Shown: one piece after another, positions 1 to 5,706 of the stretch
How the letters are laid out: every line of letters begins with the position of its first letter
How positions within the stretch are numbered: position 1 is the first letter of the stretch
Source of the DNA: Breznakia sp. PF5-3
Lineage (GTDB): Bacteria; Bacillota_I; Bacilli_A; Erysipelotrichales; Erysipelotrichaceae
Assembly: GCF_029504745.1 (NCBI RefSeq)
Contig: NZ_JAQFIQ010000069.1
Coordinates: 1 to 5,706 of the forward strand
Length of the DNA stretch: 5,706 bases
Reading direction: 5' to 3'
Position numbers and translations under genes: made by a program
Notes under the pieces: model-generated
The model's input: the letters and a program-made list of their open reading frames with translations, nothing else
Told to the model about the DNA's origin: nothing
Database searches by the model: none

Positions 1-94
1 TTATCGACTAAAATAGAGAAATTTCCTGCCTAATAGATTGTATCATATACCTTGTTATAAAAAAAGACCATTGACTTCTTTTGTCAACAGTCTG

Positions 95-129
95 AGAGTA
101 TATCTTTTAAAGATATACTCTTTTTTTTT
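95..129 (+). terminator. Rho-independent terminator, presumably for a gene upstream of the window
   Basis: A 13-nt perfect inverted repeat, agagtatatcttt (95-107) / aaagatatactct (109-121), runs straight into a 9-T run (121-129). The apical pairs must open to form a loop. Confidence 0.6.
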
Positions 130-177: not shown

Positions 178-342
178 ATGAAATATTTAAAATTTTTATT
201 TAACATTTCATCATGGATAACAATACTTATAGGAGTATTAATCTGCTTAGGGTATTTGAATTATGAATATACTGCTATTCTTTTTTTTAGTGCGCTTATA
301 ATGAGTATATGCTCTTATTTTATTCATAAAAAACAAGCTTGA
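178..342 (+). CDS. Small hydrophobic two-TM protein (54 aa), candidate bacteriocin immunity protein; not in the supplied ORF track
   Basis: Hand translation gives MKYLKFLFNISSWITILIGVLICLGYLNYEYTAILFFSALIMSICSYFIHKKQA, ending at TGA 340-342. GGAGG at 167-171 lies 6 nt before ATG 178. Two hydrophobic stretches flank a YLNYEY loop, and the C-terminus is basic. It sits directly upstream of the bacteriocin exporter. Confidence 0.55.
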   Translation: MKYLKFLFNISSWITILIGVLICLGYLNYEYTAILFFSALIMSICSYFIHKKQA

Positions 343-406: not shown

Positions 407-2617
407 ATGTTTAAAAAATATCCGTGTGTTTTACAACATGATCATAATGATTGTGCAGCTGCGGCATTATCAACAATTCTATTAACATATGGAAGCGAAG
501 TGTCCATATTAGAAATTAGAGATAGTATAAAAACGGATTTAAATGGGACGACAGTAAAAGGAATCATAGAAGGACTTGAGAAGTTCAAATTCCAAACAAA
601 AGCTTTACGTACAGAGACACAGGAGCTGACTTTGGATATTACATTACCAGCGATTGCAATGGTGCACACTAGTAATAATCAAGAACATTTTGTTGTTCTA
701 CATAAAATTAAAAAGAATGATACTTTTATTATTGCAGATCCTGCGAAAGGTATTATTGAAAAAACACGTGAAGAATTTGATAAAATCTTTACAGGTGTTT
801 TTATTATGATGATACCAATGAGTGATTTTGAAAAAATGAAATTTTCTTCTGCAACGATGTATGAAGTATTCAAGAATTTGATTTTTCCTCATAAAGCATT
901 ACTGTTGCAAGTTATTTTAATATCGATGTTACTTAGTTTTTTAGGAATTTTTGTATCTTTGTTCTCAAAGGTATTGATGGACGAAATAATACCTTATCAA
1001 TTAAAGAATACACTTTATATCTATTTGCTATTTTTTATAATTGTAACACTATTTCAAAATATATTGTCTGCTTTTAGACAGCATATTTTGTTGTTCTTAG
1101 CGCGAAAGATAGATATCCCATTATTGCTTGGTTATTATCAACATATTTTACATTTGCCATATAAGTTTTTTGTATCACGAAGAATCGGTGATATTATTAC
1201 TCGTTTTCAAGACGCAAGTACGATTAAAGAGATCTTTACTAGCTTATCTATCTCTTTGGTTATGGATATAGTATTGGCAAGTGTCACATGTATTGTTTTA
1301 TTTAGTTTGAATAGTACTTTATTTTTGGTTTTAGCAATTATTGTTTTAATAAATATAGTTTTAATTTATGCTTTTAAAGGTTCATATAAAAAAATCAATT
1401 ATAAACAAATGGAGGCATCTTCTAGATTAAATTCTCAATTGATTGAATCTTTGAAAAATATTGAGACAATCAAAGCTCAAAATGATGAAAAAGCACAAAT
1501 GAATCACGTTGAAGAAAACTTAGTCACATCAGAGAAAATTGCATATCAAGAAGGACGATTGCAAAATCTACAATCATTCCTTTCAAATACATTAAATGCC
1601 ATTGGAAACTTGGTATTCATGGGAGTGGGAGCAATATTTATCATTGATGGAAATATGACAATTGGTGATTTATTGGTATTTCAAACATTAAGTCAGTATT
1701 TCATGGAACCAGTGCAAAGTCTTGTATCACTTCAATTATCATTTCAAGAAGCACATATTGCTATGCAAAGGTTGAGTGAATTGATGTCACTAAAGATAGA
1801 AAATGCAGAAAAAACACTTATTCATAAGATTTCTTTGAATGAGCAAATAAGGTTTTCTAATGTTACATTTGCATATGGGAATCGCATTCCAATATTAAAT
1901 AATTTTTCTTTGGTAATTCCACCAGGGAAAGCAATTGCTTTAATTGGCGAAAGTGGAGCTGGAAAGAGCACAATTATAAAATTATTATTGAAATTTTTGG
2001 AAGTGAATGAAGGCAAAATATCATTTGGAAAACATAATATTGTTGATATTGACACCTATACACTACGTCAGAAAATAGCATATATTCCACAAAATATTGA
2101 ATTGTTTACAGGGACAATTATTGATAATTTACAAGTTGGACATCCAGAGGCTCGGTATGAAGATATTATTTTGGCTTGCAAACAAGCTGGTGCTGATGAA
2201 TTTATTGATAATTTACCTGATCGATATATGACGTTCATTGAAGAAGGTGCTAGTAATTTATCTGGTGGCGAACAGCAAAGATTGGCACTAGCCAGAGCAT
2301 TGCTCGGCAATCCCGATTTATATGTGTTTGATGAAGTTACATCAAATTTGGATTCTTTTAGTGAACTTAGAATACATGAATTAATTTTTAAGAAATTGTA
2401 TAAAAAAACAAGAATTATTGTTGCTCACAGGTTATCAACAATCCGTAGCTGTGATGAAATTTATTTTATTAAGGATGGAGAAATAATTGAAAAGGGTTCA
2501 CATGATGAACTGATGAGATTAAATGGACAATACGCAAAGATGATTTCTCTGCAAGAATCATCACCCGAAAAATATAAGCCTAGAGAAGAAGTGATGGAGG
2601 AAATGGTATATGAGTAA
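407..2617 (+). CDS. Bacteriocin-processing and export ABC transporter with an N-terminal C39 double-glycine peptidase domain (LagD/LcnC/ComA/PedD-type)
   Basis: 736-aa ORF with GAAAGGGG 5 nt upstream of the ATG. The N-terminus has the C39 hallmarks: Q10, catalytic Cys16 in HNDCAAAAL (codon 452-454), His in QEHFVVLHK and Asp in IADPAKG. A six-TM-like hydrophobic core follows. NBD motifs are Walker A GESGAGKST (1946-1972), Q-loop YIPQN, signature LSGGEQQRLALARA (from 2258), Walker B LYVFDE and H-loop VAHRLST. Confidence 0.95.
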   Translation: MFKKYPCVLQHDHNDCAAAALSTILLTYGSEVSILEIRDSIKTDLNGTTVKGIIEGLEKFKFQTKALRTETQELTLDITLPAIAMVHTSNNQEHFVVLHKIKKNDTFIIADPAKGIIEKTREEFDKIFTGVFIMMIPMSDFEKMKFSSATMYEVFKNLIFPHKALLLQVILISMLLSFLGIFVSLFSKVLMDEIIPYQLKNTLYIYLLFFIIVTLFQNILSAFRQHILLFLARKIDIPLLLGYYQHILHLPYKFFVSRRIGDIITRFQDASTIKEIFTSLSISLVMDIVLASVTCIVLFSLNSTLFLVLAIIVLINIVLIYAFKGSYKKINYKQMEASSRLNSQLIESLKNIETIKAQNDEKAQMNHVEENLVTSEKIAYQEGRLQNLQSFLSNTLNAIGNLVFMGVGAIFIIDGNMTIGDLLVFQTLSQYFMEPVQSLVSLQLSFQEAHIAMQRLSELMSLKIENAEKTLIHKISLNEQIRFSNVTFAYGNRIPILNNFSLVIPPGKAIALIGESGAGKSTIIKLLLKFLEVNEGKISFGKHNIVDIDTYTLRQKIAYIPQNIELFTGTIIDNLQVGHPEARYEDIILACKQAGADEFIDNLPDRYMTFIEEGASNLSGGEQQRLALARALLGNPDLYVFDEVTSNLDSFSELRIHELIFKKLYKKTRIIVAHRLSTIRSCDEIYFIKDGEIIEKGSHDELMRLNGQYAKMISLQESSPEKYKPREEVMEEMVYE

Positions 2618-3092
2618 ATTGAATGTGTTAGAGAATAAATCATTGCTATTGAAACAGGTTGTAAAATGTGAAATACACAATATTTCGATTTATGAGTTTG
2701 ATAGAAAACTACAATTATTTATTCAACGGTTACAAACTATGAACGCTGATTTATTTGGTCCATTGGTTACCCATATGAAAGGGACGACATTTAATGAAAA
2801 AGGCGAAGTTAAAGCGGATTATGAAATTTTTGTACAAGCAAATAATTATTTAGATTTTAAAGATGAATTTATTGTAATGGATATGTTTCGATTTGATCAT
2901 TGTATTTGCTTACGATTTGAAGATCATCCAAAATATTTTGATTTAGCTCATCAAAAGTTGCAAGTGTATCTTTATGAACATGATTTAGACAGCTCTGGAT
3001 CGGTGATTACAGTGCTTATGGAAGAAAGTGAAGCAATGATAAAAGCAGATATTTTTATTCCCATAGTAGGAGTAGGGTATGAAGTTTCATAG
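2610..3092 (+). CDS. Soluble acidic 160-aa protein of unknown function, possibly a duplicated beta-alpha-beta-beta (GyrI-like/SHS2-type) ligand-binding fold
   Basis: GGAGG (2596-2600) lies 9 nt before ATG 2610. The start overlaps the ABC stop by 8 nt (ATGAGTAA) and the 3' end overlaps the HlyD start by 14 nt. There is no TM segment. The fold call rests only on my reading of the sequence pattern. Confidence 0.8.
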   Translation: MSKLNVLENKSLLLKQVVKCEIHNISIYEFDRKLQLFIQRLQTMNADLFGPLVTHMKGTTFNEKGEVKADYEIFVQANNYLDFKDEFIVMDMFRFDHCICLRFEDHPKYFDLAHQKLQVYLYEHDLDSSGSVITVLMEESEAMIKADIFIPIVGVGYEVS

Positions 3093-4311
3093 TAAAGAAG
3101 AATTACAATCATCAAGAATTTTCTTTGATAAAAATCCACCTAAATATATTTATTTGTTTGTGTTTTTGGTATGCCTTTTTATTGTTGTTTGTTTATGGTT
3201 TTCATTGTATGCAACAAAAACATATGTCGTGAAAGCAAATGGAGAGATTATTACTACAGATAATCAATATATTACGTCAAATGTAAATGGAACAGTGAGT
3301 GAAATACAAAAAGCAGAAGGAAGCCAAGTGAGAAAAGGGGATATTCTTTTTATTGCAAATAATGGAATAACGGGTGTACAAGGAGAAGCATTATTAGAGC
3401 AGCTTAACTTTGCAAAAGAAAAATTAGCTGCTATGGATTTGTTTGAGCGCTCGCTAAACGAAAAAACAAATTATTTGGAGAATGATGGTGTGCAACAGGA
3501 ATATTTTGGGAAAGTGGAATATTATTTATTGCAAGTTTACGAAGATGAAATTAATTTGCAGCAACAGCAAAAAGAATATGCAAAAAAGAGTGAAAAAATT
3601 GTAAATATAGAGAAGGAAATAGAGAATTTGCGCAAAAGCACGGCAGAAGATTCTCAAGATGAAATAATAAGTAAAAGCAGTGAAATAGAAACGTTGAATA
3701 ATGAATTGGATACATTGCAGTTGCAGATGAAAAGCACTTCACAAAACGATAAATTGCGTACACAATTTATATCTGAATTGGGTTCTTCGCGAACGCAAGT
3801 GGAAACACAGATAACGGAATTGGAAGGGAATCGATCTGCTTCTGTAAATGAAGATAAAACATTTATTGCGAAAGCACAGAACGATGGAATAGTGCATTAC
3901 AGAATTCCTATTAAATTAGGAATGAATGTACAAGTGAATCAGATTGTTGCTGAAGTAAGTAAAAATGATGAAAAGGACTATCTAGTAGAAGCATATGTTG
4001 ATGCTGCTGAAATATCAAAAATTTCTGAAAAGAATAGCGTAAATATATCAATTATCGGTGTAAATACGCAGATATACGGTGATTTGAAAGGTGAAATTAT
4101 TTCTATTGATAATGGAACAATCACACAAGAAACTCAAGATGGAACGATATTGGTATATCGTTGTTTGATTCGTTTAGAACAAACGAAACTGAATGGAAAA
4201 GACGATACTTATATACAAGCAATGAAATCAATGCCAGTGGAGGTGCAGATCATTTATGATAATGAAAGTTATCTAGACTGGATTTTAGAATTATTGAGTT
4301 TTAAAAGTTAA
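3079..4311 (+). CDS. HlyD-family bacteriocin secretion accessory (membrane fusion) protein
   Basis: 410 aa, with AGGAG (3068-3072) 6 nt before the ATG. It has a single N-terminal TM (YIYLFVFLVCLFIVVCLWFSLYA) and a lipoyl-like hairpin motif (VVKANGEI...NGTVSEIQKAEGSQVRKGDILF). A long E/K/Q-rich coiled-coil region and a beta-rich C-terminus follow. It lies directly after a C39-ABC gene, the classic pairing. Confidence 0.9.
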   Translation: MKFHSKEELQSSRIFFDKNPPKYIYLFVFLVCLFIVVCLWFSLYATKTYVVKANGEIITTDNQYITSNVNGTVSEIQKAEGSQVRKGDILFIANNGITGVQGEALLEQLNFAKEKLAAMDLFERSLNEKTNYLENDGVQQEYFGKVEYYLLQVYEDEINLQQQQKEYAKKSEKIVNIEKEIENLRKSTAEDSQDEIISKSSEIETLNNELDTLQLQMKSTSQNDKLRTQFISELGSSRTQVETQITELEGNRSASVNEDKTFIAKAQNDGIVHYRIPIKLGMNVQVNQIVAEVSKNDEKDYLVEAYVDAAEISKISEKNSVNISIIGVNTQIYGDLKGEIISIDNGTITQETQDGTILVYRCLIRLEQTKLNGKDDTYIQAMKSMPVEVQIIYDNESYLDWILELLSFKS

Positions 4312-4322: not shown

Positions 4323-4366
4323 ATGAATACAGCTGATCATTTTATATATAGGAAAGGAGGAAGATT

Positions 4367-4654
4367 ATGGAACTAATTATGCCAAATAACAGTTTGGAAA
4401 TGAATGCGAATGAAATGGCATATGTTGATGGAAGTTGGAAACTTTATACAAATTGGTGGGGCTTATGCTTAAAGCTAACTAAGAATGAATGTTCAAAAAT
4501 AGCACTTGGTACAAGAGCTGCTAGCCTTATAACGGGAAATCCAACTGCATTAGCATTAGCTAAAGCGTTCTCTTGGGCAGCTAGCTGGGGTGCAGCTAAC
4601 AATGGCTTATACATTAATAAGACATGGACTGGATACGGCTGGGTATCTTGGTAA
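4367..4654 (+). CDS. Bacteriocin precursor candidate (95 aa) with a leader peptide and a Trp-rich cationic core
   Basis: GGAGG (4356-4360) lies 6 nt before the ATG. The N-terminus MELIMPNNSLEMNANEMAYVDG/S resembles a double-glycine-type leader (hydrophobic/E periodicity ending in Gly). The core of about 72-73 aa has 2 Cys, net charge about +6 and an Ala/Gly/Ser-rich hydrophobic centre. The gene sits immediately after the C39-ABC/HlyD genes. Confidence 0.8.
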   Translation: MELIMPNNSLEMNANEMAYVDGSWKLYTNWWGLCLKLTKNECSKIALGTRAASLITGNPTALALAKAFSWAASWGAANNGLYINKTWTGYGWVSW

Positions 4655-4664
4655 ATAGATAATC

Positions 4665-4835
4665 ATGAAAAATAAAATTTTATTTGTAAGTAGAGTAATG
4701 ACAACATTGGCAATGCTTATAATAGTGATATTTGAAATGATATACGATGTGCATTATGATTGGATATGGTTTGTGTTACTTATTCTATTGTCAATTGAGT
4801 TATGTTTAGAGATTATCAAAGAAAGGTGTTCTTGA
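4665..4835 (+). CDS. Small hydrophobic two-TM protein (56 aa), candidate cognate immunity protein; not in the supplied ORF track
   Basis: Hand translation gives MKNKILFVSRVMTTLAMLIIVIFEMIYDVHYDWIWFVLLILLSIELCLEIIKERCS, ending at TGA 4833-4835. The ATG lies 10 nt after the peptide gene stop. There is no clear SD, so coupling or reinitiation is possible. The terminator overlaps its 3' end. This is the classic position for a class II bacteriocin immunity gene. Confidence 0.55.
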   Translation: MKNKILFVSRVMTTLAMLIIVIFEMIYDVHYDWIWFVLLILLSIELCLEIIKERCS

Positions 4836-4853
4836 AAAGAACACTTTTCTTTT
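4824..4853 (+). terminator. Rho-independent terminator
   Basis: Stem gtgttctt (4826-4833) / aagaacac (4837-4844), extendable by a G:T and an A:T pair, followed by TTTTCTTTT (4845-4853). Confidence 0.75.
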
Positions 4854-4919
4854 AGGGAAATAGGCAGACAATATGAATTTAAAAGTAGAATATCTTGAAT
4901 ATTCAATTATGAAAGGAGA

Positions 4920-5258
4920 ATGGAATTGGAATTCATATTACCGAAAGTATGCGTTGAATTACAAACTGATGAAATTGTTGGGAAAGGTTATTGGACTCAT
5001 GTTAGAAATGCAGAATGGACATGGACTTTTACCAAAAGAGATTGTGCCAATATTTCTTGGATTATGAGCGCGGGAGCGAGTATCGCATCTGCAGTGGGGT
5101 ACTTTTGCCCACAAGTAGCCCCATATGCAAGTGTATTAGCATCAGCATTGGGGTTTGGATCTAAACTATTTAGTAATGGAGCTAAATATAATGGAATCCG
5201 TGTTTATTTCCACACAATGTGGTGGGGAAGAACGCCTCGGTGGGCGCAGTATATTTAG
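4920..5258 (+). CDS. Second bacteriocin precursor candidate (112 aa), paralogue of the 4367-4654 product
   Basis: By-eye alignment to the first peptide shows shared blocks. The leaders share P-x3-[LV]E[ML]-x3-E[MI][AV]. The cores share G-x-W-x4-N, [LF]TK[NR][ED]C-x2-I, an A/S/G-rich hydrophobic centre, NG[LI] and a Trp-rich C-terminus. Net charge is about +6. The start is uncertain: ATG 4920 lies only 1 nt after GGAG (4915-4918), while in-frame TTG 4926 has a 7-nt spacing. Confidence 0.75.
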   Translation: MELEFILPKVCVELQTDEIVGKGYWTHVRNAEWTWTFTKRDCANISWIMSAGASIASAVGYFCPQVAPYASVLASALGFGSKLFSNGAKYNGIRVYFHTMWWGRTPRWAQYI

Positions 5259-5262
5259 ATAA

Positions 5263-5297
5263 GAAGAGGATGTATTCCTCTTCCATTATATATTTTT
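5263..5297 (+). terminator. Possible weak terminator after the second peptide gene
   Basis: Perfect 8-bp stem gaagagga (5263-5270) / tcctcttc (5276-5283) with loop tgtat. The T-run (5293-5297) is separated from the stem by about 9 AT-rich nt. Confidence 0.4.
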
Positions 5298-5322: not shown

Positions 5323-5351
5323 TTGACAAGATAAAAAAATATGCTTATAAT
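5323..5351 (+). promoter_or_regulatory. Consensus sigma-A promoter driving the T-box leader
   Basis: TTGACA (5323-5328), an exact 17-nt spacer, then TATAAT (5346-5351). Confidence 0.8.
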
Positions 5352-5367
5352 TACAACAATACAAAAA

Positions 5368-5619
5368 GACAGTGATAAGAACTAGTAAAGATATGGATTT
5401 TATAGAGACTTCTTGGTTGGTGGAAAAGAAGATATGAAGTATCTTGAACACATCTTTGAGTCATAAAGGTGAAATGAGTAATCTTTATCGGTTTCCTTGC
5501 ATCCGTTATCATGCTAGAGTATGTTAGTACTTGAAGAGGTTGGTATTGTGAAATACTGATAAAAAAAGGTGGAACCACGTGAGCTAAGACTTTCGTCCTT
5601 TGGATGAAAGTCTTTTTTT
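5368..5619 (+). promoter_or_regulatory. T-box riboswitch leader with specifier codon CAC (His)
   Basis: Stem I has base gac/gtc, a K-turn-like gtgat...tgag, and AGAGA (5404-5408). The distal helix is cttctt/aagaag with a ggttggtggaaa loop. An AGTA box lies in gaagta (5437-5440). The specifier loop GAA-CAC-A has the codon at 5449-5451, analogous to GAA-GGC-A in glyQS. Stem II carries gagtaa, and the F-box CCGTTA is at 5503-5508. Stem III is gtatt/aatac. The T-box reads AAAGGTGGAACCACGTG (5565-5581) with a 7-nt bulge UGGAACC. Antiterminator helices aaagg/ccttt and acg/cgt compete with the terminator. Confidence 0.85.
5586..5619 (+). terminator. T-box attenuator terminator
   Basis: A 13-bp stem aagactttcgtcc (5586-5598) / ggatgaaagtctt (5602-5614) with one G:T pair, running into a 7-T run that ends at 5619. 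Its 5' arm overlaps the 3' arm of the antiterminator. Confidence 0.85.
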
Positions 5620-5620
5620 G

Positions 5621-5706
5621 GTGTGCTAGGCATGGCATATATCTAGTGGTGAAAGTCCACTGTGGGGGGTGTAGTCGCTAACCCGTAGCCGAAGACAAGG
5701 GTGTCC
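5621..5706 (+). mobile_element. Group II intron, class C (IIC), 5' end of domain I; truncated by the window edge
   Basis: It starts with GUGUG (the GUGYG consensus) at 5621. From memory, it matches the 5' end of the Oceanobacillus iheyensis group IIC intron block by block: GTGTGC (5621-5626), GGCATGG (5629-5635), GGTGAAAGTCC (5648-5658, versus GGUGAGAGUCC), TAGCC (5686-5690) and CAAGGGTGTCC (5696-5706). It sits 1 nt after a terminator T-run, the characteristic IIC insertion site. Confidence 0.8.

Follow-up and report, generated by a model that had tools for sequence, protein, structure and literature searches.

A self-contained rtg-type peptide-export cassette from Breznakia encoding two distantly paralogous, Trp-rich precursors of putative bacteriocins

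What is exported by the gene cluster on a 5,706-nucleotide (nt) stretch of contig NZ_JAQFIQ010000069.1 from Breznakia sp. PF5-3 (hereafter the window), in which two small genes for Trp-rich proteins lie directly behind an exporter of the C39-ABC/HlyD type? An earlier note, made from the DNA letters alone, had proposed that the two genes encode paralogous, unusually long leader peptides of an unrecognised bacteriocin family. The window carries a self-contained rtg-type peptide-export cassette without an Rgg/SHP regulator, of the kind described in Streptococcus pneumoniae but residing in a member of the Erysipelotrichaceae. The cores of its two peptides appear to constitute an unrecognised family, which would make them new cargo for a locus type that is already known and probably encodes bacteriocins, and we estimate a probability of about 0.6 that the cassette exports cationic, Trp-rich precursors whose cores act as class II (IId-like) bacteriocins. 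The proposal of a new family therefore stands for the cores, which are uncurated; the leader and the exporter type had already been described for rtg, and the antibacterial activity is one that we infer.

Both small frames are genuine genes located as previously reported, with ribosome-binding-type motifs and orthologues; all features given below lie on the + strand. The gene for peptide 1 (4367..4654) encodes a precursor of 95 amino acids (aa), has GGAGG (4356-4360) positioned 6 nt ahead of its ATG, and its product matches a “hypothetical protein” of Breznakia sp. PF5-3 at every residue. The listed open reading frame (ORF) for peptide 2 opens with an ATG at 4920 (112 aa), just 1 nt past an AAAGGAG motif (4912-4918). 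A TTG codon at 4926 has a 7-nt spacer and yields the N-terminus MEFILPK..., in agreement with the orthologues (MEFVLPK or MELVLPK), and for these reasons peptide 2 probably starts at the TTG, so that the gene extends over 4926..5258 and the product has 110 aa rather than 112. Orthologues of peptide 2 (53-65% identical) are found in three metagenomic loci (L001-L006) and in Breznakia pachnodae DSM 16784 (L036), always as the last gene of the same cassette type, and peptide 1 has a relative in locus L008 (P0020, 51-52% identical). Ratios of nonsynonymous to synonymous substitution (dN/dS) are 0.28 for peptide 1 and 0.11-0.26 for peptide 2 against these relatives, with a value of 0.15 for the least saturated pair (L001/L036, dS 0.91); judged by these ratios, both genes are under purifying selection.

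The two products were said to align over their whole length, and their kinship is borne out as a distant one. Pairwise BLASTP aligns them with 26% identity over 107 columns (E=0.002), which is weak on its own. After removal of the leaders, the two subgroups compared profile against profile reach E=3.2e-5 with a probability of 73% over 58 columns, a peptide-2-type hidden Markov model (HMM) cross-matches the peptide-1-type sequence of L008 (E=0.006), and a single profile recovers intermediates of both types in an exhaustive search of 1.84 billion representatives. On the strength of the core comparison, the cross-match and the intermediates, peptides 1 and 2 are, as far as alignments can tell, distant paralogues. 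The blocks that had been picked out by eye recur in the family. The intermediates begin Trp-rich and have in common TKx[ED]C, a centre rich in Ala, Ser and Gly, NG[LIM] and a tail that is Trp-rich or otherwise aromatic; the alignments also bear out that a single Cys, that of TKxxC, is positionally shared.

The leader tells a different story from that of the cores. What had been regarded as a leader core typical of the new family is the Rtg-type double-glycine (GG) signal, common to dozens of peptides with unrelated cores, and the supposedly unusual length of the products is normal for Rtg-type precursors (~100-127 aa). The products are better called leader-bearing precursors than leader peptides. 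Distant relatives carry a near-invariant 23-aa N-terminus, MELVLP(K/N)NYVEIEQEEMMYLDGG, and the consensus of the Rtg-type signal is MELVLPxNYVEIEQEEMMYLDGG, with Pro at -18. A search with the family alignment also recovered peptides of ~100-130 aa from S. pneumoniae, S. orisratti and Helcococcus ovis in which the leader is common and the cores are unrelated. The pneumococcal peptide (P0034) adjoins argG/argH, an Rgg regulator and a disrupted rtgA, matching the locus described by Wang et al. In that study the RtgG signal has Y/L/M/L at positions -15/-12/-7/-4 and Pro at -18 (Wang et al. 2020, PMC7018657). Residues -22 to -18 were shown experimentally to route secretion via the peptidase-containing ABC transporter (PCAT) RtgAB and not via ComAB/BlpAB, and RtgAB was found to be less dependent on the hydrophobic positions -4/-7/-12/-15 (PMC7018657). 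A full-text literature search with the leader strings returned no match.

The signal of peptide 1 (4367-4435, 23 aa, MELIMPNNSLEMNANEMAYVDGS) matches, over its full length, an HMM trained on 30 foreign leaders of the Rtg type (E=1.7e-6). It has E-L-I-M-P at -22 to -18 and V, M, M and S at -4, -7, -12 and -15, so that three of the four positions are hydrophobic. The signal ends in ...V-D-G-S (PCAT-dependent GG peptides have Gly-Gly, Gly-Ala or Gly-Ser at this place), in register with the DGG of P0020, P0010 and P0014, and the equivalent junction of P0020 lies between DGG and WKTYSNWWG; because of this register, peptide 1 is probably cut after G-S, leaving a core of 72 aa that begins at W24 (4436-4651). 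The signal of peptide 2 (4926-4988, MEFILPKVCVELQTDEIVGKG) is degenerate. It is 2 aa shorter, has E-F-I-L-P at -20 to -16 and V, D, V and K at -4, -7, -12 and -15 (two of four hydrophobic), and ends in G-K-G (4980-4988); its four orthologues end in G-[EK]-G (e.g. L001 8058-8066 and L036 7058-7066). The B. pachnodae orthologue begins MELVLPKNYVEL, which equals canonical leaders for the first 12 residues (I or L at canonical position 12). As the sister sequences P0006 and P0019 have YWTH directly after a canonical ...DGG, the core of peptide 2 very probably starts at its own YWTH and comprises 89 aa (4989-5255). The mature lengths estimated earlier were 73 and 89 aa; the second agrees with this assignment, and the first is likely to be 72 aa, with the core starting from W24 and not from S23.

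The exporter genes upstream of the peptides, as the note had stated, belong to the PCAT and HlyD families. The PCAT (407..2617) is an RtgA-type protein of 736 aa with C39 peptidase, transmembrane and ATPase domains (Pfam Peptidase_C39 3e-36, ABC_membrane 2e-43, ABC_tran 3e-29), and it scores 528 bits on the NCBIfam model TIGR01193 (cut-off 523.85). The catalytic Q, C, H and D positions of C39 are conserved in the alignment, and the domain encoded beside the peptide genes would thus seem to be catalytically competent. The protein is 55-62% identical to PCATs adjoining canonical Rtg-type peptides, 56% identical to RtgA of the mitis group and 54% identical to the pneumococcal rtgA fragment. The accessory protein (3079..4311, 410 aa) is RtgB/ComB/BlpB-like, with matches to HlyD_3 (1e-11), TIGR01843 (5e-24) and TIGR01000 (5e-18), and is 33-47% identical to accessory proteins of other Rtg-type loci, including 38% to that of the mitis-group loci that have RtgR (95% identical) encoded upstream.

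A scan based on the leader alignment, with one genome per species, returned 43 loci (L010-L052) from mitis-group and other streptococci, Helcococcus, Facklamia, Marinilactibacillus, Neobacillus, Natronobacillus, Amphibacillus, Proteiniclasticum and several Erysipelotrichales. The three-gene module of the window recurs in about 30 of them and consists of a PCAT, a protein of ~155-185 aa and an HlyD-like protein. In the window the middle gene (2610..3092) encodes a conserved cytoplasmic protein of 160 aa; proteins of this type match by HMM at 1e-46 to 1e-78 in ~30 loci, with identities of 30-41%. The gene nearly always lies between those for the PCAT and the HlyD-like protein (e.g. window 2610-3092, L001 6124-6597 and L026 5021-5506), it overlaps both neighbours in the window and in several other loci, and two loci of Helcococcus and Facklamia have intervening peptide genes. 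Just upstream of the module, the mitis-group loci encode an orthologue of RtgR (86-96% identity to the pneumococcal protein), and on gene content they are therefore true rtg loci in which rtgA and rtgB are intact. The middle gene of these loci appears, from its size and position, to correspond to rtgX, which is listed as a “GyrI-like hypothetical protein” in Table 2 of the rtg study, where it is present in 21% of strains, a share close to the 19% with intact rtgB (PMC7018657).

When the GyrI-likeness was examined against Pfam, with 10 orthologues of the 160-aa protein taken in, the S. mitis orthologue showed a full-length match to PF06445 that is below threshold (E=0.063, 14 bits versus a cut-off of 26), and the window protein matched neither PF06445 nor any enzyme-family Pfam model. 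Profile searches of the PDB with the 160-aa protein gave no match, an hhalign comparison with an SbmC sequence likewise gave none, and a single-sequence AlphaFold2 model has a predicted local distance difference test (pLDDT) score of 41, too low to be of use. It is possible that the distal leader motif (-22 to -18) is read by the RtgX-like protein.

RtgR homologues are absent from the window, for which the DNA before position 1 was not seen, and from every non-streptococcal locus of the set. In L008 the exporter is directly preceded by genes for a histidine kinase and a response regulator of the LytTR type (474-2419). The one export module therefore occurs under different control, by Rgg/SHP in streptococci, by LytTR in L008 and with no dedicated regulator seen in the Breznakia loci.

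We turn to the cores, for which the composition reported earlier, about +6 in charge and Trp-rich, is confirmed. The predicted core of peptide 1 (72 aa, 7.97 kDa) has a net charge of +6 and 8 Trp residues, and that of peptide 2 (89 aa, 10.15 kDa) a net charge of +6 and 7 Trp residues. Neither translation contains the YGNGV box of class IIa, and neither peptide has any Pfam or NCBIfam match at E<=1, which agrees with the earlier view that they do not resemble lactococcin 972 and extends it to the other curated bacteriocin families. Four of 16 relatives touch PF10439 weakly (Bacteriocin_IIc, best E=0.0016), the matches of the relatives to curated models being scattered and below threshold. The PDB holds no sequence match to the peptides or to the 16-member alignment, no database source supplies a functional name, and the sole named member of the core family (P0001) is a “hypothetical protein”. 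The family is rare, with ~20 relatives among 15 billion proteins. The exhaustive profile search returned 15 matches at E<1e-3, one of which, a 5,236-aa protein with 19 matched stretches, was rejected as a spurious hit to a repeat adhesin. Among named genomes the core family occurs only in Breznakia, in a scan that was seeded with the leader pattern and could miss members with divergent leaders.

An AlphaFold2 model of peptide 2, calculated with a 19-sequence alignment, has a pLDDT of 83, with values above 90 in the core. Strands are predicted at residues 22-26 and 30-35, helices at 37-60 and 62-87, and further strands at 91-98 and 101-109, so that the confidently predicted fold would be a helical hairpin flanked by N- and C-terminal beta-hairpins. 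Foldseek comparison of this model with the PDB and BFVD gave nothing at E<0.001, generic helical hairpins being the best matches. Peptide 2 has at its centre an uncharged stretch of 40 residues that abounds in Ala, Gly and Ser, and the centre of peptide 1 is shorter and has Lys and Arg. Both cores are moderately hydrophobic, with Kyte-Doolittle values over 17 residues (KD17) of 1.0-1.3, versus 2.0-2.45 for the small ORFs that neighbour them.

Two such ORFs are present in the window, each predicted to form two hydrophobic helices. ORF54 (178..342, 54 aa), upstream of the exporter, has a KD17 maximum of 2.25 and homologues at the same position in B. pachnodae L036 (40% identity, E=9e-9) and in L004/L005, and a 59-aa ORF occupies this position in L001; it is a candidate immunity or accessory protein travelling with the peptide-2-type gene. 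ORF56 (4665..4835, 56 aa), with a KD17 maximum of 2.45, lies directly 3' of peptide 1 and is a candidate immunity protein by virtue of its position and hydrophobicity. It is followed by a hairpin (4826-4844) and TTTTCTTTT, a T-rich tail on the + strand, which together (4826..4855) make up a probable terminator separating the peptide 1/ORF56 unit from peptide 2. Small ORFs with two transmembrane segments (2-TM) adjoin family members in five independent loci, including L056 (55 aa), L054 (59 aa), L001 (48 aa) and L036 (52 aa).

We infer the following mechanism from these features. The two ORFs would encode precursors from which secreted proteins of 8 and 10 kDa, cationic, rich in Trp and unmodified, are released. 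The PCAT would recognise the Rtg-type signal together with the HlyD-like protein, probably also with the 160-aa RtgX-like protein, and its C39 domain would remove the signal during export, after G-S in peptide 1 and after the unusual G-K-G in peptide 2. The released cores may then fold as a small alpha/beta unit, in which beta-hairpins rich in Trp, Arg, Lys and His surround a helical hairpin rich in Ala, Gly and Ser. Most likely they would be narrow-spectrum class II (IId-like) bacteriocins that act on the membrane of related Gram-positive bacteria, the Trp/Arg/Lys-rich sheet docking onto the interface of the membrane and the helical hairpin, with its small residues, inserting or oligomerising, with ORF54 and ORF56 protecting the producer as putative immunity proteins. 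A toxin/immunity logic is suggested by the association of one leader with many unrelated Gly/Ala-rich cores, by the small 2-TM genes beside family members in five independent loci, and by the LytTR two-component system upstream of the L008 exporter. The contrast in hydropathy between the cationic, moderately hydrophobic cores and the adjacent small ORFs would fit secreted membrane-active proteins with integral-membrane partners. With a PCAT, an HlyD-like accessory protein and small 2-TM immunity-like ORFs, the gene neighbourhood is the one seen in class II bacteriocin loci. A bacteriocin function is plausible.

Several observations weigh against this interpretation. No activity has been demonstrated for any Rtg-type cargo, the function being given as “Unknown” in a 2020 review, and a 2026 review gives no molecular function for the Rtg peptides. 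The leader of peptide 2 taken alone fails the leader HMM (E=1.8). Gly at -2, described in the literature as required for PCAT binding and cleavage, is absent in peptide 2 and its four orthologues, all of which are encoded behind an intact C39 transporter; a comparison of the C39 domains of G-x-G and canonical loci found the catalytic residues intact and no interpretable change in specificity. No regulator is visible in the window, and the locus comparison revealed no sequence homologues of ORF56. Since the central helices of peptide 1 hold Lys and Arg, a transmembrane-hairpin model does not fit both paralogues together. The more ambitious proposition that the cores define a new structural class of 8-10 kDa alpha/beta bacteriocins, exported by a three-component Rtg machine widespread in the Bacillota in which the RtgX-like protein reads the distal motif in the cytoplasm and the Breznakia-clade peptidase has evolved to cut the non-canonical G-x-G, is in our view doubtful.

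The peptides might instead be factors for signalling, adhesion, biofilm or colonisation that leave through the same PCAT. Roles other than that of a bacteriocin do occur among GG peptides (pneumococcal BriC and VP1), the functions of the pneumococcal Rtg peptides are listed as unknown and the rtg locus confers a colonisation advantage by an undefined mechanism, and the compact alpha/beta fold predicted here differs from the short amphipathic helices that most class II bacteriocins form. However, cores of 72-89 aa far exceed known GG pheromones, no receptor kinase is encoded in the window or in the peptide-2-type loci, and the recurring 2-TM genes, together with one leader on highly polymorphic cargo, are hallmarks of toxin/immunity systems, so that we consider a role other than that of a toxin unlikely. 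A further possibility is that peptides 1 and 2 are the halves of a two-peptide (class IIb) bacteriocin active only jointly, as might be expected of paralogous GG peptides within one cassette whose centres are both rich in small residues, and L054 likewise has tandem family members (P0008 and P0021). Class IIb systems are recognised by a co-occurring adjacent pair in one operon with a shared immunity gene. In the window, however, the two genes are parted by ORF56 and the terminator-like hairpin, and each type is found alone with a complete exporter elsewhere (peptide 2 type in L001, L004 and L036; peptide 1 type in L008). As lengths of 72-89 aa are also far beyond those of class IIb peptides, joint action is highly improbable.

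We give very little credence to the idea that the peptides are precursors of peptides that are made on the ribosome and then modified after translation (RiPPs), or chemical substrates of the 160-aa protein before export. A conserved protein is always encoded within the exporter module, some PCATs do export RiPPs, and the window PCAT reaches 484 bits on the NHLP bacteriocin exporter model (cut-off 853.3). Yet a Pfam search and the ORF list disclose no recognisable modification enzyme inside the terminator-bounded cassette, nor is there one in the flanks of four related loci, where housekeeping genes are found; the 160-aa protein matches no enzyme family, and the long cores are predicted to fold unaided. 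Secreted, unmodified bacteriocins of class II (IId-like) remain our preferred reading of the two cores.

The cassette itself is compact, lies entirely on the + strand and has terminator-like hairpins at both ends. The upstream boundary (94..122) consists of a 13-bp stem followed by TTTTTTTT in a T-run, and the hairpin that closes the cassette lies at 5263..5283, just behind peptide 2. Beyond it, a perfect sigma-70 promoter (TTGACA-17-TATAAT, 5323-5351) precedes a T-box leader (Rfam RF00230, 119.8 bits, 5363-5603) with its terminator at 5586-5614. The T-box of the syntenic loci L036 and L001 leads directly into hisZ (a hisZ/hisG histidine operon in related loci). The last part of the window (5620-5706) is a sequence beginning with GTGTG, right after the T-run of the T-box terminator, that is absent from L036 and L001. 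An Rfam search of 5590-5706 gave no match, and by BLAST the sequence shares 78% identity with DNA lying ~380 nt upstream of ltrA, the gene for a group II intron reverse transcriptase, in Ligilactobacillus salivarius plasmids. Given this match and the absence from the syntenic loci, 5620-5706 probably represents the 5' end of a group II intron that has inserted after the terminator, between the his T-box leader and its operon.

The Rtg-type signal motif has been described as exclusive to the pneumococcal rtg peptides (PMC7018657). In the present set the leader is near-invariant from streptococci to bacilli, Clostridia and Erysipelotrichales, often with several peptides per locus, and the signal and exporter are spread across the Bacillota, almost always with a third gene between those for the PCAT and the accessory protein. 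This breadth offers candidates for two questions raised by Wang et al., namely the role of the Rtg peptides and the identity of the reader of the distal motif. The G-[EK]-G site of the peptide 2 clade provides a natural test case for the rule on Gly at -2. For bacteriocin discovery, the cores add one further cargo family, with a confidently predicted fold that has so far no structural match.

Among known systems, the class II microcins (microcin V/colicin V) resemble the window peptides in size, a comparison made by general description only. They have GG leaders, mature lengths of ~60-90 aa, a Gly/Ala/Ser-rich composition and export by a PCAT and an HlyD-family protein; they are Gram-negative and TolC-dependent, with leaders of 15-19 aa, anionic or neutral charge and outer-membrane receptors. 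Class IId, the linear, non-pediocin, one-peptide bacteriocins of Gram-positive bacteria for which PF10439 is the nearest model, is comparable to the window in its cationic GG-leader precursors taken as unmodified, its Gly/Ala-rich core, its dedicated PCAT and accessory protein and its small immunity-like genes. In contrast to class IId, the window peptides do not match PF10439 at E<=1 and have a predicted fold that is mixed alpha/beta, and the mature size in that class is typically 30-60 aa, as against the 72-89 aa predicted here. The closest parallel is the rtg locus of S. pneumoniae. It differs from the Breznakia cassette in that the core HMMs do not match the pneumococcal Rtg cargo found here, in that the window has no RtgR/RtgS (Rgg/SHP) regulator and belongs to an insect-gut member of the Erysipelotrichaceae, and in that the leader of peptide 2 is shortened and ends in G-K-G. 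The two systems nevertheless share a signal type of 23 aa that has Pro at -18 and M at -7 together with the N-terminal E-L-V/I-L/M-P motif (PMC7018657), as well as long precursors (~95-127 aa), PCATs that are 54-56% identical, RtgX-like and RtgB-like genes, and genes for small membrane proteins beside the peptides.

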